Assembly: GCA_963742735.1 (NCBI GenBank)
Contig: CAVUMN010000004.1
Location: 1,312,001 to 1,376,000 of the forward strand
From: an uncultured Actinomycetes bacterium
GTDB lineage: Bacteria; Actinomycetota; UBA4738; JBBDTT01
DNA: 64,000 nt
Direction of reading: 5' to 3'
Notes under the pieces: generated by a model
Database searches by the model: none
What the model saw: only the letters and a program-made list of their open reading frames with translations
Told to the model about the DNA's origin: nothing
In this document: piece by piece, positions 3,280 to 13,133 of the stretch
How the letters are laid out: the number at the start of each line of letters is the position of its first letter
Position numbering within the stretch: the first letter of the stretch is position 1
Made by a program: the position numbers and the translations under genes

Positions 3280-4818
3280 GTGACCGACGAGCCGAGGCCC
3301 GTCCTGGTCGTCGACTTCGGCGCGCAGTACGCGCAGCTGATCGCGCGCCGCGTCCGCGAGTGCAACGTCTACTCCGAGATCGTCCCGCACGACATCCCCG
3401 TGGCGGAGCTCCGCCGCCGCCGCCCGGCCGGTCTGATCCTGTCGGGGGGCCCGATGAGCGTGTACGAGGAGGGCGCCCCGCAGCTCAACCCGGAGTTCCT
3501 AGAGACCGGCGTCCCCGTCCTGGGCATCTGTTACGGCCAGCAGGCCATGACCCGGGCGCTGGGAGGCGAGGTGGCCCACAGCGGGATCCGGGAGTACGGC
3601 AAGACCGAACTGACCGTGACGACGCCGGGCGTCCTGCTCCGAGACCTCCCCACCGAGCAGATCGTCTGGATGAGCCACGGCGACGCCGTGACCCGGCCTC
3701 CCGAAGGGTTCCGCCCCACCGCCAGCACCGACGCCTCGCCGGTGGCGGCCATGGAGGACCCCGAGCGCGGACTGTTCGGCGTGCAGTTCCACCCCGAGGT
3801 GGCGCACACCCCGCGCGGGCTCGACGTCATGAAGCGGTTCCTGCACGACGCCTGCGGGCTCCTGCCGGACTGGACGCCGATCACCGTGGTCGAGCGCGCC
3901 GTCGAGCAGGTCCGGGCGCAGGTGGGGGACCAGGAGGTCCTGTGCGCGCTCTCGGGCGGCGTGGACTCGGCGGTGGCGGCACTGCTGGTCCACCGAGCGG
4001 TGGGGGAGCGCCTGACGTGCGTGTTCGTCGACACCGGCCTGCTGCGTCTGGGCGAGCCCGAGCAGGTCGAGGAGACCTTCCGCGGCCACTTCGGCATCGA
4101 CCTGGTGCACGTGAAGGCCGAGGACCGGTTCCTGGGACGACTCGCGGGCGTGACCGACCCGGAGGACAAGCGCAAGGCGATCGGCGAGGAGTTCATCCGG
4201 GTCTTCGAGGAGGTGGCCCGCGATCACACCGGCGCCCGCTTCCTGGTCCAGGGAACCCTGTATCCCGACGTCATCGAGTCCGGGACCCGCGACGCCGCGA
4301 AGATCAAGAGCCACCACAACGTGGGCGGGCTCCCTGAGGACATGGACTTCGACCTGGTCGAGCCCCTGCGCGACCTGTTCAAGGACGAGGTCCGAAAGGT
4401 GGGACAGGAGCTCGGTCTGCCCGAGGAGATCGTGTGGCGCCAGCCGTTCCCCGGTCCGGGCCTGGCGGTGCGCATCATCGGCGAGGTCACCAAGGAGCGC
4501 CTGGAGATCCTCCGCGGGGCCGACGCGGTGGTCCAGGAGGAGATCCGCCGCGCCGGCCTGACCCGGGAGCTGTGGCAGGCGTTCGCGGTGCTCCCGGCGA
4601 TCCGCAGCGTCGGGGTCATGGGCGACGGCCGCACGTACGCCTACCCCATCGCGGTACGCGCGGTCACGAGCGAGGACGCGATGACCGCCGACTGGGCCCG
4701 GCTGCCCTACGAGGTCCTGGAGCGCATCTCCAGCCGGCTGGTGGCCGAGGTGGCCGGGGTCAACCGGGTGGTCTACGACATCTCGTCGAAGCCGCCGTCC
4801 ACCATCGAGTGGGAATGA
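3280..4818 (+). CDS. guaA: GMP synthase (glutamine-hydrolysing)
   Basis: [52 protein letters not shown]. Confidence 0.98.
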
Positions 4819-5090
4819 CCGCCTCGCCGCTGCGGATCCCCGACGACGTGGTGTTCGAGGTGCTCGGGGAGGACACGGTGCTCCTGCAGCTCGAGAGCGG
4901 CGACTACTTCACGCTGAACGGCTCCGCCACGCGGGCGTGGCAGCTCATCGAGGAGCACGGCGACCTGGATCGCGTCCGCCAGGCGATGCTCGCCGAGTAC
5001 GAGGTGCCCCACGACCAGCTGAACGCCGACCTCGACCGGCTTGTGGGAGACCTCGTTGAGCGCGGCCTCCTCGACCGGTCCTCCGGCTGA
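4815..5090 (+). CDS. PqqD-family RiPP recognition element (lasso B1 protein)
   Basis: 91 aa: [34 protein letters not shown]...EYEV...[19 protein letters not shown] overlap with guaA stop. Confidence 0.9.
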
Positions 5091-5556
5091 GCCCCGGCCC
5101 CGGCGCGGCGCGGCCGGGGCGCTGGGCGCCTTCCTCCGACGGACCCCCGGCGAGCGGGCCGCGGTCGTGCGCGCCCTCCCGGCGCTCGCCCGGGTGGAGC
5201 TCGGCCTCCGCGGGCACGCCCCGCTGCCCGAGCTCGCCGCGCGGCTGGGGATCCGACTGGGCACGGATCCCACCGAGCGCCCGCGGCGGGGCGCCCCGCT
5301 CTCGGAGCGCGAGCGGCTGGACGTCGACGCGGCGCGGCGGATGGTGCGGCGGGTCCCCGCCGAGGCCCGGTGCCTCCGCCGCGCGCTCCTGGTCGGCCAC
5401 GCCCTGCGGGCGCGCGACCCGGTGCTCCGGATCGGGGCGGCCAAGCACGACGGCCACATCCACGCCCACGCGTGGATCGAGGTCGGCGGCCAGGTCCCCG
5501 AGGACACCGAGCACGGCGTGACGTTCCTGCCACTCCGACGGGCCCGGGGCTCGTGA
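5056..5556 (+). CDS. Lasso peptide leader peptidase (B2, transglutaminase-like)
   Basis: RCLRRAL...LRIG...HIHAHAWIEVGG catalytic Cys/His motif. Start uncertain (TTG 5041 or 5056). Confidence 0.88.
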   Translation: MSAASSTGPPAEPRPRRGAAGALGAFLRRTPGERAAVVRALPALARVELGLRGHAPLPELAARLGIRLGTDPTERPRRGAPLSERERLDVDAARRMVRRVPAEARCLRRALLVGHALRARDPVLRIGAAKHDGHIHAHAWIEVGGQVPEDTEHGVTFLPLRRARGS

Positions 5557-6476
5557 GCGAGGTCTACCTGGTCCACGGGTTCCGGATGGAATCCGACGTG
5601 GAGCTGCCCGCGCCGCGGACGGACGGTCGGGTGGACCTGTCGGTCACGGTGGAGGATCCCCGTCCGGTCGCGGACGCGCCGCCGCCCGGGAGGGTGCTCG
5701 CGTCCGTCGAGGAGGACGGGTTCACCTACACGGTGACCGACGACGGGGGCACCCTGCGGGTGCGGGTGCCTCGCTTCGCCGAATTCGAGGTGGACCCGGA
5801 GCGGCGGCGGGCGCGGATGCATCGCGACCCGTCGGCCGACGCGGGGATCGAGTCGATCCTCATCTGTGGATCCCTCCCGGCGGCCCTGCTCGCCGAGGCG
5901 GGGGCCTGCGTCCTTCACGGGAGCGCGGTCCAAGCCGGCGGCCGCGCGGTCGCCTTCGTCGGTGGTTCCGGCGGGGGCAAGTCCACGCTCGCGGCGGTGC
6001 TGTGCGCCGCGGGCGCCAGGCTGATCACGGACGACCTGCTTCGACTGATCGTGGACGGCGACGAGGTCCGCGCGGCCGCCGGGCCCCCCGAGATCCGGCT
6101 GCGGCCGGCGGCGGCTCAGCTGGCGGCGGGCCTGGCGGGTGAGGCGTCGCAGACCGCGGACGGCCGTACGGCGGTCCGCGTGGAGGAGGGCGCCGAGTCG
6201 CCGCTCGCGACGATCATCATCCCGTCGCCCGATCGTGAGATCGCGGAGGTGCACGCCGAGCGTCTGAGCGGGGCGGAGGCGCTGGTGGAGCTTGGGCGCT
6301 ACCCGCGGGCGGCGGGGTGGCGACCCCCGGAGGTTCGGGCCGCGCGGTTCAGGGCGCTGGCCCAGGTCTCGCGGGCCGTCCCCGTGTTCCGGGCGCGGAT
6401 CCCCTGGGGCCCCCCGTTCGCCGAGGACCTGGCGGAGGCGCTGCTCGGGCTGGCCGGACTCGGGGTGCCACGTTGA
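5553..6476 (+). CDS. HPr-kinase-like kinase (lasso peptide tailoring kinase)
   Basis: VLHGSAV, P-loop GGSGGGKSTLA, LITDD motifs; GTGA overlap with B2 stop. Confidence 0.85.
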   Translation: MSEVYLVHGFRMESDVELPAPRTDGRVDLSVTVEDPRPVADAPPPGRVLASVEEDGFTYTVTDDGGTLRVRVPRFAEFEVDPERRRARMHRDPSADAGIESILICGSLPAALLAEAGACVLHGSAVQAGGRAVAFVGGSGGGKSTLAAVLCAAGARLITDDLLRLIVDGDEVRAAAGPPEIRLRPAAAQLAAGLAGEASQTADGRTAVRVEEGAESPLATIIIPSPDREIAEVHAERLSGAEALVELGRYPRAAGWRPPEVRAARFRALAQVSRAVPVFRARIPWGPPFAEDLAEALLGLAGLGVPR

Positions 6477-8230
6477 GCCTGCGGCCCCTCAGCGACCTGC
6501 TCGCGGTCCGCTCGCCCGATCCCGGCCGGCTGGAGGCGCTCGAGGGCGAGCTCCGGTCGAGCGGCCGGTTCGCGCAGGTGTGGCGCCCGGCACCCGGCTG
6601 GGTGGTGGCCGCCGCGCCGCTGCCGGACTCGGACGCGGACGGTGAGGCGGTCCGGGGGGCCGGGCTGGCTTTCGTCGAGGGGCGCGAGGTCGTGGGTGCC
6701 GACGATCCCGGCCGGGCGATCGAGATCGCCCACCGCGCGGCGCACGCGCCGGCGACACTCGACGGCCTTCCCGGAGACTTCACGTTCCTGGCGTTCGGCA
6801 CCGATGGCTCGCTGACCGTGGTCCGGGCGGCGGCGGGTCTCGCCCCCCTCTACGTCACGGGGGAGGGGGCGGTGGCCAGCCGGATGGACCTCCTCCTCCG
6901 GTTCGGCCTCGCCGAGCCGGACCTGGACCCGCTGCCGAACGCGATGTGGCTCACGGGTTTCGCGCTGTTCCCCGACGGCCGAAGCCTGATCGCGGGGGTC
7001 CATGTGGTCGAGCGGGGGTCCTACTGGCGCATCGGCCCGGGCGGCGAGCGAAGCTCCGGCGTCTACTGGAATCCGCGCGCGCAGGAGCTGGCCCCGCCAA
7101 CGCCGGCCGTCCTCGAGGAACGGTCGGCGCGCCTCCGGGAGATCCTGGTCGAGCGCCTGACCGCCGACCTCGATCCACGGGAGGGGAACCTGCTGTCGCT
7201 CTCCGGCGGGATGGACTCCTCGTCGCTGCTGGCGCTGGCCGCCGGGACCCTCGGGCTGCCGGTGGCCGCCCTGTCGTTGCTGCCGGAACGGGGTCCCGCG
7301 GTGGACCGTGAGCTCGGCTACATCCGGGCGGCGTCCGAGCGCGGTCCGCTGGCCGAGCACTTCCAGTACCCCATGAGCGTCGAGTTCCGGCGCCGCCTTC
7401 GCCGGTCGGCCCCCGCGGTGGCGGTCCAGTGCCTGCACCCGATCCTGATGGTCCTGCCGGAGGTGCTCGAGCGGTGGCCGGTCCGGGTGCTGTTCGGTGG
7501 CGAGTCGGGGGACGACATCGCCGGCTCGCACTACACGATGGAGGACTGGGTCCACCACACCTCCCTCTCACGCCTGCTGGGCTCCGTCGGGCGGTTCCCG
7601 CACGGGCCCCAGGACGTGGCGCGTTGGCTGAAGTGGCGGTCGGAACGCCTCCGGGGGAGGCCGCGGCTCCCGTTCCCGGATCGCCTGGCGCCGTGGACGC
7701 ACCCGGACGTCCAGACGGAGTACCGGGCGTGGGTCGCCGACCGGCGCCGGGAGCTCCTGGACGACGAGCTGCCCCGGCCGAACTTCGCGATGCGGGACCG
7801 GATGGACGGTTGGCTGGCGATGAACTGGGAGGTGACCGCGACACTCGGCGTGCGGCGGTCGATCCCGTTCTACAACCGGGCGAGCGTCGAGCTGGCCTTC
7901 GGCACCCATCCCCGGACCCTGGTGGGACCGGGTATGAAGCGCCTGCTCAGGCGGGGGCTGGCCGCCGACGTCCCGCGGGTCGTCCTGGAGCGCCCGGACA
8001 AGGGGGGGTGGGGCTCCGCCGTCGAGCCCGAGCCGGCGTCCGTCCCGGAGGAACCGATGGACCTCTCCCTTGGGTCCATCCTGCATCCGAACCGCCTGGC
8101 GTCTCCCTCGCCGCCGGTCGATTCGGCCGAGGCGAGCCGCCTGTCGGTGCTCGTCCGATTCCTGGAGGGGGCGCGGGCGGCCCGTGCGGGTGATCCGACG
8201 GCTTCGCCGCGTGGCGGCGGATCTTCTTGA
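6473..8230 (+). CDS. Lasso cyclase (asparagine-synthetase-like isopeptide ligase)
   Basis: LSLSGGMDSSSL ATP-binding loop, GGESGDD, RSIPFYN, KRLLRRGL...RPDK. No N-terminal catalytic Cys. TTGA overlap with kinase stop. Confidence 0.88.
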   Translation: MSLRPLSDLLAVRSPDPGRLEALEGELRSSGRFAQVWRPAPGWVVAAAPLPDSDADGEAVRGAGLAFVEGREVVGADDPGRAIEIAHRAAHAPATLDGLPGDFTFLAFGTDGSLTVVRAAAGLAPLYVTGEGAVASRMDLLLRFGLAEPDLDPLPNAMWLTGFALFPDGRSLIAGVHVVERGSYWRIGPGGERSSGVYWNPRAQELAPPTPAVLEERSARLREILVERLTADLDPREGNLLSLSGGMDSSSLLALAAGTLGLPVAALSLLPERGPAVDRELGYIRAASERGPLAEHFQYPMSVEFRRRLRRSAPAVAVQCLHPILMVLPEVLERWPVRVLFGGESGDDIAGSHYTMEDWVHHTSLSRLLGSVGRFPHGPQDVARWLKWRSERLRGRPRLPFPDRLAPWTHPDVQTEYRAWVADRRRELLDDELPRPNFAMRDRMDGWLAMNWEVTATLGVRRSIPFYNRASVELAFGTHPRTLVGPGMKRLLRRGLAADVPRVVLERPDKGGWGSAVEPEPASVPEEPMDLSLGSILHPNRLASPSPPVDSAEASRLSVLVRFLEGARAARAGDPTASPRGGGSS

Positions 8231-8255
8231 CACTGTTCAGCACAGCCCCTACTGT
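8227..8255 (+). promoter_or_regulatory. Sigma70-type promoter for the lasso precursor gene
   Basis: TTGACA (8227-8232), 17-nt spacer, TACTGT (8250-8255); GAGGAG RBS at 8276-8281. Confidence 0.7.
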
Positions 8256-8289
8256 CCTCGGGACTTCCGGCCCACGAGGAGTTCGCCCC

Positions 8290-8427
8290 ATGGAAAGCCA
8301 GACCGAGCAGGAAGAGGCGCGCAAGCCGTACGAACCCCCGGCCGTGCGTGAGCTCGGCAAGGTCGCGGAGATCACCCACGGGATCAACGCCCTTCCGGGC
8401 AGCGACAACACGGTCGCCAGCGTCTAG
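8290..8427 (+). CDS. Lasso peptide precursor (45 aa; predicted core GINALPGSDNTVASV)
   Basis: MESQTEQEEARKPYEPPAVRELGKVAEITH|GINALPGSDNTVASV: YxxPx(V/L) leader motif, LG, Thr at -2, Gly1 and Asp9. RBS 8 nt upstream. Confidence 0.9.
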   Translation: MESQTEQEEARKPYEPPAVRELGKVAEITHGINALPGSDNTVASV

Positions 8428-8433
8428 AGCTCC

Positions 8434-9495
8434 TCAGCCCGACGCGTCACGGCGCCACACGGCCCGTCCGATCCACGCTCGAAACGCCCTCCAGTCCATG
8501 CGGCCGTTCGCGTCCCTGAACCGGCGCGGATCGAGCCGGCCGATCGCGTAGACCAGGCCCTCACGGGGCCCCAGCTCCCGGATCCTGGCGATCTGCAGCC
8601 GCACGCCTCTGGCGTCGGTCTGGCGGGCTTCCGCGAGCCGCCCCCGTGGCGCCGGCGTGGGCCGGGCCCCCCACCTGGGCTCGCCCAGGGCACGCTCGGC
8701 GGCGGCCAGGGCGTCCTCCAGGGCCCATCCGACCCCGTGGCGCCCCGCGAGCTCCCGCGCGGTCTCGACGTCGCCTGGCAGGCCGAGCTCCACGAAGTCC
8801 ATCACCCACTGGTACCGGAACGTCTCGGGCGGGTGATGGGCCAGGTGGACGGCCAGGGCCATCAGCTGCGCGGGCGCCGAGAGCCTCAGCAGGCCGTCGT
8901 CCCCCGGGTCGGCGTGCGCCGCGAGCGCCGCGTGGTCCAGTCCCCGGGCGCGACGCTCGGCGAACAGCCGCCAGTGCATCTCGACGGCGATCGGCGCGCC
9001 GGGGCCCGGTCGCGTGAAGACCAGGTGGTGGTGATAGCGCAGGGCCGACCGCGTCTCCCACGCGGTCGGCCCCGTGTAGCCGATCCCTTCCAGCGCCGTT
9101 CTCCACGCGGGAAGGTCGTCCACGGGAACCAGGAGGTCGACGTCGACGAACGTCCGGATCGCGGGATCGGCGTAGCGGGAGGCCACCGCGGGCCCCTTCA
9201 GCAGGATGGCCGTCGCGGCCTCGGGCGGAGCGGCCCCCGCCACGCGCCGCGCCTCCAGCCCGAGCACCGTGGCCAGTGCCCGGGCGGAGCCCCAGTCGTC
9301 GCGGAGCCCGGCCAGGACGGGCTCCGGCAGGCGCAGCCCCTCGGCCCTCGAGACCACCAGCCCGGAGAGGCCGTGGCGCGCCGCGCGTCCCCGGAGTGCC
9401 TCCGACGCCCCGGCGCCGAGGGCCCCGGGGTTCCGGCCCCCCACCAGGGCCTCGAGGTACCGGTCCGCCTCGTCCTCGGCCTCGACGGTTCCCAT
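8434..9495 (-). CDS. Nucleotidyltransferase family protein (NTP_transf_5-like), lasso-associated
   Basis: ILLKGPAVA..Y....R.FVDVDLLV and VEMHWRL motifs; convergent on the precursor gene. Confidence 0.82.
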   Translation of the reverse strand: MGTVEAEDEADRYLEALVGGRNPGALGAGASEALRGRAARHGLSGLVVSRAEGLRLPEPVLAGLRDDWGSARALATVLGLEARRVAGAAPPEAATAILLKGPAVASRYADPAIRTFVDVDLLVPVDDLPAWRTALEGIGYTGPTAWETRSALRYHHHLVFTRPGPGAPIAVEMHWRLFAERRARGLDHAALAAHADPGDDGLLRLSAPAQLMALAVHLAHHPPETFRYQWVMDFVELGLPGDVETARELAGRHGVGWALEDALAAAERALGEPRWGARPTPAPRGRLAEARQTDARGVRLQIARIRELGPREGLVYAIGRLDPRRFRDANGRMDWRAFRAWIGRAVWRRDASG

Positions 9496-9501
9496 CCGAT
9501 C

Positions 9502-10296
9502 TCAGTAGTCCGCGATCGCGCCGGTGCGCATCGCCCGGCGGATCGACCAGGCGAGTGCCCCCACGCCCATCCCGGCGAAGGCGACGGCCAGCCCGGCGAG
9601 CGCCGCGACGTCGCCGAGGGACGCGCCCCAGCCGTCGCCCCGGAGGAGGCCGGCCCGCACCAGCCGCAGCGAGTGGGTGAACGGCGAGAGCTCCGAGAGC
9701 GACTCCGCCCAGTTCGGGAGCAGGCTCGCAGGGAACAGGGAGCCGGCGGTGACGGTGAGCAGGCTGACCAGGAACGCGGCGGCGGCCTGCGCCTGCCGGA
9801 ACAGGATCACCAGCGCAGCGGCGACCAGCCCCAGTCCCGCGAACGCGATCGCTCCGGCGACGACCCCGTAGAGGGCGAGGCTCCAGTTGCCCCCGGGCGC
9901 TCGCGCGCCCAGCAGCGCCGCCACGCCGACGTAGAGCGCGGAGCGGCCGGCGGCGTACGCCATCGGGTACGCCGCCATCCCCGCGGCGACGGCTCGGGCC
10001 GGGAGGCCCACCGACAGCGTGGCCTCCAGGGTTCCCTGGACCTGCTCCTGCCGGAAGTTCGCGGACAGGATCGAGACGCCCGCCGCCAGGAAGGACGTGA
10101 GGGCGATGCCCGCCGCGGCGAAGGAGAAATAGCCTCCCGGAACCCGCCCCGGGTCAACCAGGCGCCCGACGAAGACGAACGTGATCAGCAGGAACGCGGC
10201 CGACAGCACCTCGCCGGCGATCAGCGGCAGGGGGTAGGACCACGCCACCCGGGCGTCGCGCCTGACGAAGGCGCCCACCGCGGACCGCGGGCTCAT
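9502..10296 (-). CDS. ABC-2 type exporter permease
   Basis: About 6 TM segments, EQVQGTLE, LFPASLLPNW...LSPFTH motifs; ATGA overlap with the ATPase gene. Confidence 0.88.
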   Translation of the reverse strand: MSPRSAVGAFVRRDARVAWSYPLPLIAGEVLSAAFLLITFVFVGRLVDPGRVPGGYFSFAAAGIALTSFLAAGVSILSANFRQEQVQGTLEATLSVGLPARAVAAGMAAYPMAYAAGRSALYVGVAALLGARAPGGNWSLALYGVVAGAIAFAGLGLVAAALVILFRQAQAAAAFLVSLLTVTAGSLFPASLLPNWAESLSELSPFTHSLRLVRAGLLRGDGWGASLGDVAALAGLAVAFAGMGVGALAWSIRRAMRTGAIADY

Positions 10297-10931
10297 GCCG
10301 GCTCCACGGCGGGCTGCAGCTCCAGCCGGACGTCCGGCTCGGGACCCTCCGCCTCGAGCGGCGCCGCGTACAGCACCACGCCTCCGCCGGACGTCCACGC
10401 CCGGCAGGCCGCCTCGACCGCCGCGCAGCCCGGCCGGTCGAGGTCCGCGTACGGCTCGTCGATCAGGACGACCGGGGGCCGGCCGACGAGGGCCCGGGCG
10501 ATGGCCACCCGTCGCCGCTGGCCCGTCGAGCAGACGCCCATGCGTCGTTCGAGCAGCGGTTCGGCGTCCAGGGCCTTGGCGGCCCAGGCCACGTCCGTGC
10601 CGCCCGCGCCCGAGATCCCGGCGAAGAACTCCAGGTTCGCCCGCCCCGTGAGCCGCCAGTACAGGCCTCGGTCGCCCGCCGGGACGAAGCCGCTCCGCCC
10701 CCGCCCGGGCGGGGCGCCGGCCACCTCGACCCGGCCCGCGTCGGGCAGCAGGACCCCCGCGAGCACCCGTAGCAGCGTGGTCTTGCCCGATCCGTTGGGG
10801 CCCACGAGGGCCGCCAGCGTGCCCGCCTCGAGCCTCACGGAGACGTCGTCCAGGACTCGCCGGGCGCCGAAGCTCCGGGTGACGCCCTCGGCCTCGAGGG
10901 AGCCGGGCGAGGCGGGGCCGGGCCGGTCCAT
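10293..10931 (-). CDS. ABC transporter ATP-binding protein
   Basis: GPNGSGKTT Walker A, CSTGQRRR signature variant, VLIDEP Walker B. C-terminal part of the long 10293-13445 ORF. Confidence 0.9.
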   Translation of the reverse strand: MDRPGPASPGSLEAEGVTRSFGARRVLDDVSVRLEAGTLAALVGPNGSGKTTLLRVLAGVLLPDAGRVEVAGAPPGRGRSGFVPAGDRGLYWRLTGRANLEFFAGISGAGGTDVAWAAKALDAEPLLERRMGVCSTGQRRRVAIARALVGRPPVVLIDEPYADLDRPGCAAVEAACRAWTSGGGVVLYAAPLEAEGPEPDVRLELQPAVEPA

Positions 10932-10937
10932 GCGCCG

Positions 10938-10949
10938 GATTCTAGAATC
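10938..10949. promoter_or_regulatory. Palindromic bidirectional -10 element between ABC ATPase and pcrA
   Basis: GATTCTAGAATC reads TAGAAT on both strands, 7 and 10 nt from the divergent start codons. Confidence 0.6.
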
Positions 10950-10958
10950 GCCGTACCC

Positions 10959-13133
10959 GTGACTCCCGAATCCCCCCTCCTGTCGACCCTCAACCCGGTG
11001 CAGCGCGAGGCCGTGCTGCACGCGGACGGCCCCGTGCTGATCGTGGCCGGGGCGGGCAGCGGCAAGACCCGGATCCTCACCCACCGGATGGCCTACCTGA
11101 TCCGAGAGATGGGCGTGTCCCCGTACGCCATCCTGGCGATCACGTTCACCAACCGGGCCGCCAACGAGATGGCCGAGCGGGTCGAGGCCCTCCTGGGGGA
11201 GCGCGTCGCCAAGGGCATGTGGGTGCTGACGTTCCACTCGTCGTGTGTGCGGATCCTCCGCCGCGAGCACAAGCGCCTCGGTCTGCCGGCGTCCTTCTCG
11301 ATCTACGATGAATCCGACACGCAGCGGGTCGTCTCGATGTGCCTCAAGGAGGCGAACCTGGACGTCAAGAAGTTCCCGCCCCGGGGCGTCGCCGCGGTGA
11401 TCGGCAAAGCCAAGGACCACCTGATCAGCCCCGAGGAGTTCGCCGACCAGGCCTCCAACTGGTACGAGCGCTCGGTGGCCGACGTCTACCGCGCCTACCA
11501 GCGGCGGCTCCAGGCGGCCGGCGCGCTGGACTTCGACGACATCATCGTGCGCACCGTGAACCTGTTCCGCTCCCAGCCCGAGGTCCTGGAGCACTACCAG
11601 GAGCGGTTCACCCACATCCTGATCGACGAGTACCAGGACACGAACCGCGCGCAGTATCACCTGGTGAACCTGCTGGCCTCCAAGCACCGCAACCTGTGCG
11701 TGGTCGGCGACGCCGACCAGGGCGTGTACTCCTGGCGCGGGGCGACGATCCAGAACCTCCTCGAGTTCGAGAAGGACTACCCGGACGCGGCCGTGTTCGT
11801 CCTGGAGCAGAACTACCGCTCGACGCAGAACATCCTCTCGGTCGCGAACGCGCTCATCGAGCACAACCTGGAGCGCAAGCCGAAGTCGCTGTGGACCGAG
11901 GCTCCGGGTGGGGAGATGGTCGTGCGGGTTCGCGCCAACGACGAGCACGACGAGGCCTGGTTCGTGGCCGAGGAGATCACGCGACTGACCGACGAGGGGC
12001 CGTACCGGTACGGGGACGTGGCGGTGTTCTACCGGACCAACGCCCAGTCGCGGGTCCTGGAGGACGTCCTGTCGCGGGCGGGCCTGCCGTACCGGGTGGT
12101 CGGGGGCGTGCGCTTCTACGAGCGCCGGGAGGTCAAGGACCTCATCGCGTACCTCCGCCTGCTGGTGAACCCGGCGGACGTGGTCTCGGCCCGGCGCGTG
12201 GTGGGCGTGCCGAAACGGGGGATCGGCGAGGCGACCGTGGCGGCGCTGGAGGGCTTCGCCCGCGACGAGGAGATCACGTTCCTGGAGGCGGCCCGCCGCG
12301 TGGAGGAGATCGACGTCCTCGGGTCGAGGGCCAGAGGCGCCGTCGCCGGCTTCGTTCGCCTCATCGACAGCCTGCGGGCCATGGCCGAGGACGGGACCTC
12401 GGTCTCCGGCCTGGTCGAGGCGGCGTTCACCGAGTCTGGGTACATGGCCGAGCTCGAGGCGGAGCGGACCGTGGAGGCCGAGGGACGCGTGGAGAACCTG
12501 AAGGAGCTCGTCGGCGTCGCCGCGGAGTTCGAGGCCCGGTCCGAGGAGGCCGGGCTCGCCGACTTCCTGGAGCAGATCGCGCTGGTGACCGACCAGGACG
12601 AGTACGAGGACGCCGAGTCGACGGTGACGCTGATGACGCTGCATACCGCCAAGGGCCTGGAGTTCCCGGCGGTGTTCGTCGTGGGCATGGAGGACGGGGT
12701 GTTCCCGCACTACCGCTCGATGGGCGACCCGTCCCAGCTCGAGGAGGAGCGGCGGCTGGCGTACGTGGGCATCACCCGCGCCCGGGAGCGCCTGTACCTG
12801 ACGCACGCGTGGAGCCGGAACCTGTGGGGCGGCTCGTCGTTCAACCCGCCCTCGCGCTTCCTGGGCGAGATTCCCGAGGCGTTCGTGAAGCTCCACCAGG
12901 TCGAGGGGACCTCGGAGGGCGCCGGGGCGGGCAACGGCGCCGGCCGTTCGGGCATCCAGCAGCGCGCGGTGCCCACCCTGGTCGCCGGCGACACCGTCAT
13001 CCACGACCGCTGGGGGCCGGGGGTGGTGGTCGAGGTGTTCGGGGCGGGACAGCGCGCCGAGGCGAAGATCGCGTTCGAGGACCAGGGCGAGAAGCGGCTG
13101 CTCCTCGCCTATGCGCCCATCCGGAAGGCATAG
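10959..13133 (+). CDS. pcrA: ATP-dependent DNA helicase PcrA/UvrD1
   Basis: AGAGSGKT, ITFTNRAA, IDEYQDTN, VVGDADQ, LEQNYRST, MTLHTAKGLEFP, EEERRLAYVGITRA, C-terminal Tudor-like domain. Confidence 0.97.
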   Translation: MTPESPLLSTLNPVQREAVLHADGPVLIVAGAGSGKTRILTHRMAYLIREMGVSPYAILAITFTNRAANEMAERVEALLGERVAKGMWVLTFHSSCVRILRREHKRLGLPASFSIYDESDTQRVVSMCLKEANLDVKKFPPRGVAAVIGKAKDHLISPEEFADQASNWYERSVADVYRAYQRRLQAAGALDFDDIIVRTVNLFRSQPEVLEHYQERFTHILIDEYQDTNRAQYHLVNLLASKHRNLCVVGDADQGVYSWRGATIQNLLEFEKDYPDAAVFVLEQNYRSTQNILSVANALIEHNLERKPKSLWTEAPGGEMVVRVRANDEHDEAWFVAEEITRLTDEGPYRYGDVAVFYRTNAQSRVLEDVLSRAGLPYRVVGGVRFYERREVKDLIAYLRLLVNPADVVSARRVVGVPKRGIGEATVAALEGFARDEEITFLEAARRVEEIDVLGSRARGAVAGFVRLIDSLRAMAEDGTSVSGLVEAAFTESGYMAELEAERTVEAEGRVENLKELVGVAAEFEARSEEAGLADFLEQIALVTDQDEYEDAESTVTLMTLHTAKGLEFPAVFVVGMEDGVFPHYRSMGDPSQLEEERRLAYVGITRARERLYLTHAWSRNLWGGSSFNPPSRFLGEIPEAFVKLHQVEGTSEGAGAGNGAGRSGIQQRAVPTLVAGDTVIHDRWGPGVVVEVFGAGQRAEAKIAFEDQGEKRLLLAYAPIRKA

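Follow-up and report, generated by a model that had tools for sequence, protein, structure and literature searches.

A split-B lasso-peptide gene cluster with a putative peptide kinase and a PsmN-like nucleotidyltransferase in an uncultured actinomycete

INTRODUCTION

What would a lasso-peptide kinase modify in a peptide that ends in valine? This question is raised by a gene cluster between guaA and pcrA in DNA from an uncultured Actinomycetota lineage (contig CAVUMN010000004.1, positions 1,312,001 to 1,376,000). We refer to this whole stretch of 64,000 nt as the window, and coordinates without a locus name are positions within it. The cluster combines the genes expected for a lasso peptide with genes for an HprK-like kinase and a nucleotidyltransferase, here called N. 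All characterised lasso peptides with phosphorylation or phosphoglycosylation come from Bacillota, Proteobacteria and Bradymonadales (reviews; PMC9266682, PMC10368454). In the papers we searched we found no characterised actinobacterial lasso cluster with a kinase, only examples from Bacillota, Proteobacteria and Bradymonadales, and published lists of kinase clusters outside this coverage may hold some. An earlier examination of the window (the original prediction) had proposed an actinobacterial version of such a system, and the assignment of the host to an uncultured Actinomycetota lineage agrees with this.

RESULTS

A lasso-peptide gene cluster between guaA and pcrA

The interval between guaA and pcrA is filled by eight intact genes with no spare space, and we consider it likely that together they constitute a working lasso-peptide gene cluster of the split-B type, in which the kinase and N are the tailoring enzymes. 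Five genes on the + strand follow the order B1-B2-K-C-A (leader-binding protein, leader peptidase, kinase, cyclase, precursor), and the genes for N, a permease and an ATPase run convergent to them. The original prediction had described these eight genes, and all of them were found where it had placed them, with intact frames. Each element of its lasso reasoning, namely an RRE (RiPP recognition element, RiPP standing for ribosomally synthesised and post-translationally modified peptide), a B2 peptidase, an AsnB-like cyclase and a precursor with YxxP and Thr(-2), was identified by family or motif matches. The four profiles that it had proposed as a check (PqqD, Transglut_core3, Asn_synthase and NTP_transf_5) all matched above the Pfam cut-offs.

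The B function is divided between a discrete PqqD-like RRE and a transglutaminase-like B2. B1, the RRE (4815-5090, + strand, 91 aa), is a PqqD-like leader-binding protein that reaches 62.6 bits on PF05402 against a cut-off of 23.4; its best NCBIfam matches are the lasso PqqD models, yet these remain under their cut-offs. B2 (5041-5556, + strand, at most 171 aa) is a leader peptidase of the transglutaminase-like Cys protease type, scoring 52.3 bits on Transglut_core3 (PF13471; Pfam cut-off 26) and 59.7 on the NCBIfam equivalog domain NF033537 lasso_biosyn_B2 (cut-off 33). It retains the Cys in an ARCLRR stretch and the His in a HAWIEV stretch.

The third lasso enzyme is an Asn-synthase-like protein of 585 aa, the predicted macrolactam cyclase (6473-8230, + strand; PF00733, 33.7 bits versus a cut-off of 21). 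The Pfam scan returned Asn_synthase and no match to a GATase domain; the SGGMDS ATP-pyrophosphatase loop is present at residue 244, and the N-terminus MSLRPL lacks the glutaminase nucleophile Cys2. On the AsnB model TIGR01536 the protein obtains 50.3 bits and aligns from model position 113 only, whereas a true asnB elsewhere in the genome (G000:C4:1245882-1247591) obtains 406.8 bits at a cut-off of 267.1. The protein is therefore not a genuine asparagine synthetase. Its sequence is that of a putative cyclase that is not a glutamine-dependent AsnB. Scores on the NCBIfam lasso-cyclase models fall far under the cut-offs, so the assignment rests on the genomic context and on the features that set the protein apart from AsnB; a sequence search against the PDB gave nothing useful. 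Orthologs of the cyclase adjoin lasso precursors in five related loci (L020, L024, L032, L033 and L036).

The kinase

The gene at 5553-6476 (+ strand) encodes an HprK-like peptide kinase of 307 aa, recognised by its motif residues and fold together with weak matches to HprK profiles. All eight residues of the pattern His ... GxxGxGKS ... DD are present (H122, G137, G140, G142, K143, S144, D160 and D161), with a spacing identical to that of the mutationally tested motif of BsfK, H148-G163-G166-G168-K169-S170-D186-D187 (PMC10368454). An AlphaFold model computed from a 29-sequence input has a predicted local distance difference test score (pLDDT) of 96.3, and its fold matches phosphoenolpyruvate carboxykinases and HprK/P. 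Many homologs of the kinase carry the precomputed Pfam accession PF27840.1, which was not listed in the Pfam scan of the window kinase itself. The HPr-rel-A system (TIGR04352 for the kinase, TIGR04353 for PqqD) provides the best or near-best NCBIfam matches of the kinase and the RRE; we rejected membership in this system, as the scores are 29.2 versus 200 for TIGR04352 HprK_rel_A and 30 versus 35 for TIGR04353.

We then asked how widely this kinase occurs. Among 1.84 billion cluster representatives 14,495 relatives were found at E<=1e-3, 2,386 at E<=1e-10 and 464 at E<=1e-30, with no relative but the kinase itself above 48% identity. A search of 90% clusters added relatives at 85% and at up to 53% identity, and the named ones belong to Actinomycetota metagenome-assembled genomes, Cellulosimicrobium, Nocardioides and a record labelled 'Jannaschia sp.'. 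In genome collections matches were found in 2 of 294 genomes of the window's own class at E<=1e-20 (G000 and G001), in 7 of 401 genomes of an even phylum sample at E<=1e-25 (G000 and the unpublished G542 are among the seven) and in 1 of 21 genomes of the order of G345. A genome scan with a 9-sequence kinase alignment gave at least nine loci, several of them mere P-loop matches. Comparing the cluster counts with the genome fractions, we conclude that the subfamily is large but patchy; it is common in metagenomes.

The nucleotidyltransferase and the exporter

N (8434-9495, - strand, 353 aa) is predicted to be a tailoring enzyme of nucleotidyltransferase fold and matches NTP_transf_5 (PF14907) with 106.9 bits against a cut-off of 31.2. 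We take PsmN of the pseudomycoidin cluster to be a member of the same Pfam family; 'lasso' combined with PF14907 occurred in no paper of the library searched. N is PsmN-like and has a DxD of the catalytic type: K100, G101, D118 and D120 do not vary across the alignment, where 15 of 15 sequences have them (G-x16-DxD). The N model has a pLDDT of 90.3 and matches the nucleotidyltransferases MenT1, MenT3 and ANT(2'')-Ia, including entry 4xje, by which the pseudomycoidin study located the catalytic residues D134 and D136 of PsmN (PMC6993621). Next to N lie the genes of an ABC-2 type permease (9502-10296, - strand, 264 aa; PF01061 ABC2_membrane, 49.7 versus 26.9) and an ABC transporter ATPase (10293-10931, - strand, 212 aa; PF00005 ABC_tran, 86.9 versus 25). 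The likeliest start of the permease is ATG 10296, which overlaps the ATPase stop (ATGA), and its open frame extends to 10398.

N, the permease and the ATPase lie on the strand opposite to the lasso genes and could belong to an unrelated neighbouring operon outside the lasso pathway. Of the 10 distinct related loci whose flank was long enough, a profile detected N-like genes in three (L024, L034 and L035) and none in the other seven, and L032 has neither N nor a transporter nearby. We nevertheless judge an unrelated operon to be improbable. Homologs of N (87, 52 and 51% identity) and of the kinase (85, 53 and 53%) were found on equal-sized contigs (17381, 144753 and 7739), which implies that both genes are neighbours in the three closest kinase relatives as well. 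In L024 the two kinases flank a permease and an ATPase (44.5% identity), and the precursors adjoin an N-like gene; in L034 the N-like gene lies directly upstream of B1. Moreover, the eight genes jointly fill a guaA-pcrA gap that measures 76 bp in genome G013. Profile searches also found N-like genes in the short loci L014 and L017. Since just three of the ten flanked loci have an N-like gene, N is an accessory in the wider clade.

The precursor and its predicted product

The precursor gene (8290-8427, + strand) encodes 45 aa, a 30-aa leader followed by the 15-aa core GINALPGSDNTVASV, and matches NF033521 lasso_leader_L3 with 24 against a cut-off of 19. The leader contains Y(-17)xxP(-14)xV(-12) and T(-2), the same positions as named for BsfA (PMC10368454). 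In the core Asp9 is the sole acidic residue and lies within the range expected for a lasso precursor (Asp or Glu at 7-9); the only possible ring is therefore Gly1-Asp9, which leaves a six-residue tail. We computed monoisotopic masses of 1413.71 Da for the linear core, 1395.6994 Da for the cyclised core and 1475.6657 Da after addition of HPO3, the latter two in agreement with the values previously calculated by hand (1395.70 and 1475.67 Da). With HPO3 and one hexose the mass would be 1637.7186 Da, and with two hexoses 1799.7714 Da. The core had not been recognised in the original prediction, and we likewise found its sequence in no paper of the library searched. In a word search of 5.8 billion proteins the precursor matched only itself, which does not make it unique, as small open reading frames are seldom called.

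The tail, NTVASV, consists of six small residues and contains no bulky plug, and residues F, W, Y, R, K or H account for 0 of 15 positions in the core. A six-residue tail is very short for a nine-residue ring. The product may accordingly be a branched-cyclic, unthreaded macrolactam whose modifications serve solubility, export or activity and not locking, a possibility that we take seriously but rather doubt. The lasso cyclase family folds its substrates prior to ring closure, which counts against an unthreaded product. On the other side, a lasso topology normally depends on disulfides or bulky plugs (PMC8498205), neither of which this tail offers, and pseudomycoidin made without psmK and psmN was reported as not threaded (PMC6993621). 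The same study describes, however, that PsmN adds hexose to the phosphate, and its authors propose the phospho-hexose as a lock that maintains threading (PMC6993621). As NTVASV is free of bulky residues, the steric lock of the window's peptide would likely be the phospho(-glycosyl) group, if the peptide is threaded at all. Either this group takes the role of lock that Zyubko et al. suggested in the case of pseudomycoidin, or the product is branched-cyclic.

Hydroxyl groups in the window core are offered by Ser8, Thr11 and Ser14; position 3 is Asn, and the last residue, before the TAG stop, is Val (...VASV). In related loci, precursors ending in Ser were observed in L003 (Nocardioides flavus), L022/L025, L023 (two precursors), L035 and L036, and also in the distant same-order loci L012-L014. 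Precursors without a terminal Ser are those of the window, L032 (...GSAV), L002 (...NTSL) and L033 (...SGGL) and eight of L024. These 12 cores have 15-24 residues, and 6 of the 12 are free of F, W, Y, R, K and H. A kinase tree with 19 rows has little resolution (6 of its 16 inner branches stay open) and does not settle whether the clusters without terminal Ser form a single clade; the tree leaves out L027, which comes from an unpublished genome.

The kinase might target an internal residue, Ser8 in the ring or Thr11, with all enzymes otherwise acting in the same way. HprK-like RiPP kinases that are not bound to the C-terminus exist, as BsfK phosphorylates Ser3 (PMC10368454) and LppK likewise acts on Ser3. 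The ring motif G-x4-PGSDN, which includes Ser8, is common to the window and L003, and GSD recurs in the L036 precursor. L003 and L036, however, also carry the classical C-terminal Ser. In addition, 12 of the 12 cores without terminal Ser keep a Ser or Thr at positions -2 to -5, an argument of little weight in cores that are 17-44% Ser/Thr and of which eight come from one locus, L024. We hold an internal target to be possible, with the odds against it.

L024 itself has from eight to at least nine precursor genes in two arrays (1960-2732 and 7061-7884, with a further stretch at 259-38 on the - strand, in coordinates of that locus), along with two HprK-like kinases, an ABC pair, a cyclase and an N-like gene. 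Its cores have 15-17 residues, are rich in Gly, Ser and Thr, and none of them ends in Ser.

Conservation and history of the locus

The cluster is preceded by guaA (3280-4818; NF000848, 791 bits versus a cut-off of 400) and followed by pcrA (10959-13133; TIGR01073, 969.8 bits versus 911.2). The G+C content is 71.4% over the whole window and 75.6% in the cluster, and the G+C content at third codon positions (GC3) ranges from 0.89 to 0.95 for all eight cluster genes (0.89 for the precursor), like that of guaA and pcrA.

A collinear relative was found in L020, a 3,757-bp metagenome contig that ends exactly at the leader/core junction, so that the core is not covered. It contains the end of guaA followed by B1-B2-K-C and the leader part of A, with 77.6% nucleotide identity overall, a value that is 91% at the guaA end and 64-82% across the kinase and cyclase genes; the precursor leader is conserved. 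The ratio of non-synonymous to synonymous substitution rates (dN/dS) between the two loci is 0.31 for both B1 and K, 0.30 for C, 0.25 for B2 and 0.22 for the leader. From these ratios and the collinearity we conclude that the cluster stood behind guaA before the two lineages split and has been under purifying selection. A silent or decaying relic is thus very improbable: the frames are intact, GC3 is high, the catalytic residues are kept and dN/dS versus L020 does not exceed 0.31.

The sole other genome of the genus, G001 (61% complete), has a B1-B2-K-C block (L011, G001:C190) with a kinase of 51% identity, and this block represents another version of the cluster, diverged and located elsewhere. 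L011 sits behind a gene for a secreted protein and not behind guaA, and its contig ends inside the cyclase. Among 20 order relatives, guaA lies at most 1.5 kb upstream of pcrA in two, G013 (L050, 76-bp gap) and G019 (L053, 860 bp); the 20 include the unpublished G006 and G014, both of which are negative. These junctions fit an insertion of the 6.1-kb cluster there and suggest, as far as gene order tells, that it entered an older guaA-pcrA junction. Direct or inverted repeats were not found at the cluster borders. A word search of sequencing runs gave one soil DNA run with 0.08 of the words. Its assembly is short, with three identical cyclase pieces and a depth of 0 in the precursor bin, and nothing follows from it for variants.

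Gene junctions and regulatory features

The lasso genes are tightly packed. The RRE ATG overlaps the guaA stop (ATGA, 4815-4818), the kinase GTG overlaps the B2 stop (GTGA) and the cyclase TTG overlaps the kinase stop (TTGA). The precursor ATG at 8290 follows a 59-bp spacer behind the cyclase and has a GAGGAG Shine-Dalgarno site, and the N stop is 6 bp from the precursor stop. A promoter scan returned 0 sites. Given the overlap of the RRE start with the guaA stop and this lack of a promoter-like site, the lasso operon may be read through from the guaB3-guaA operon. The same guaA/RRE overlap was seen in L020. A terminator-like hairpin (8203-8221; 8 pairs, then a T-rich tail) lies in the last cyclase codons just before the precursor gene; a count of one such hairpin equals the chance expectation of 1.0 in the scanned region.

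At the other end, a perfect 12-bp palindrome, GATTCTAGAATC, lies at 10938-10949, inside the 27-bp gap between the divergent starts of the ATPase (ATG 10931, - strand) and pcrA (GTG 10959). On either strand it gives a TAGAAT box resembling a -10 element, and these boxes lie 7 and 10 nt ahead of the respective start codons. It has one match in the window versus 0.02 expected by chance and forms the only AT-rich spot for kilobases. It was not found in the other 60 loci, nor upstream of pcrA in relatives. The palindrome could be a (near-)leaderless divergent promoter pair or an operator.

DISCUSSION

By analogy with the characterised systems we propose the following route. The PqqD-type RRE would bind the 45-aa precursor through its YxxPxV leader, and the HprK-like kinase would phosphorylate a Ser/Thr hydroxyl while the leader is attached, helped by B1, with Ser14 as the likeliest site. 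Such an order would follow what is described for other lasso kinases, which act on the precursor before leader removal (PMC9266682), and B1 speeds up phosphorylation by BsfK (PMC10368454). B2 would then cleave the leader after T(-2)-H(-1), and the cyclase would link the Gly1 amine to the side chain of Asp9, giving a ring of nine residues and a tail of six. In the manner of PsmN, N would then extend the phosphate by a group that is hexose-type or nucleotide-derived, and the ABC-2 ATPase/permease pair would export the product. The peptide is thus probably phosphorylated and carries a further decoration. Gene content, catalytic motifs, folds, purifying selection and the conserved locus are direct observations, whereas we infer the sequence of the steps, which residue is modified, what the second modification is chemically, threading and biological activity.

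Several points weigh against this proposal. PadeK, ThcoK, SyanK and PsmK all phosphorylate a C-terminal Ser (PMC9266682, PMC10368454), the very residue that the window core, ending in Val, does not offer. Which of Ser8, Thr11 and Ser14 is phosphorylated can therefore only be guessed; as neither a C-terminal Ser nor Ser3 exists here, our guess favours Ser14 as the hydroxyl nearest the C-terminus. The kinase lies under the curated cut-offs of every HprK model in Pfam and NCBIfam, with 21.3 versus 33.3 for Hpr_kinase_C in Pfam. N-like genes are scarce among the flanked related loci, and LppN was inactive in a heterologous host. The start of B2 is ambiguous, being either TTG 5041 or TTG 5056, both of which overlap the end of the RRE gene. 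Finally, the word search of sequencing runs gave no RNA run, from which nothing follows for expression.

The comparison with paeninodin (kinase) and pseudomycoidin (kinase and nucleotidyltransferase) that the original prediction had drawn is apt according to PMC9266682 and PMC6993621. The window resembles paeninodin of Paenibacillus dendritiformis (PadeK) and the ThcoK and SyanK systems in its split B1/B2, its AsnB-like cyclase and its HprK-like kinase, which has the His, P-loop and Asp-Asp elements, and it shares with them a class II core in which a small N-terminal residue would be joined to Asp9. It differs in that paeninodin-type kinases, PadeK being compared by its published description, act strictly on a C-terminal Ser while the window core ends in ...ASV. 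Further differences are the host, an uncultured member of the Actinomycetota instead of Bacillota or Proteobacteria, the much shorter core (15 aa), the gene order B1-B2-K-C-A and the exporter, a two-gene ABC-2 type.

The cluster for pseudomycoidin of Bacillus pseudomycoides likewise combines a kinase with an 'uncharacterised nucleotidyltransferase' that has a DxD (D134/D136 in PsmN, D118/D120 in the window). PsmN and N both show limited likeness to ANT(2''), and the idea of a phospho-hexose lock would fit the plug-less tail of the window's peptide. In contrast, psmN is placed between psmB2 and psmD and shares their strand, whereas the gene for N is convergent, and PsmA ends in Ser. The bsf cluster of Bradymonas sediminis is also a lasso cluster with a kinase, BsfK, and with BsfN, predicted to be a nucleotidyltransferase. 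The kinase motif spacing is identical, and neither BsfK nor, as proposed, the window kinase uses a C-terminal Ser. BsfK, however, targets Ser3 behind a leader with Ile(-2), whereas the window has Asn at position 3 and the canonical Thr(-2). Clusters for linear polyphosphorylated peptides (LPPs) of Bacillota share with the window an RRE, a kinase of the HprK-like type, an NTP transferase and an exporter, but they have no cyclase and no B2 and contain a signal-peptidase-like protease; the window has both lasso enzymes. Judged by sequence, the cluster is of a known kind, and its core lacks the terminal Ser and the bulky locking residues of the studied examples.

A bolder and more tentative idea is that the window belongs to an actinobacterial branch whose cores are short, rich in Gly, Ser and Thr and without a terminal Ser. 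In this branch the kinase would have shifted from a strictly C-terminal Ser to a sub-terminal Ser or Thr, and the phospho(-glycosyl) group, in place of an amino-acid side chain or a disulfide, would be the only plug that holds a 15-residue peptide in its threaded form. If true, this would amount to the barest form of what has been proposed as a 'third strategy' of lasso stabilisation on the example of pseudomycoidin. The kinase subfamily is abundant in metagenomes, yet without a described product. With a core of 15 residues that allows a single ring, offers three hydroxyl residues and lacks a plug residue, the window's peptide would be a very small test object, on which two questions could be addressed: what sets the site of an HprK-like RiPP kinase, and whether a post-translational group alone can lock a lasso.

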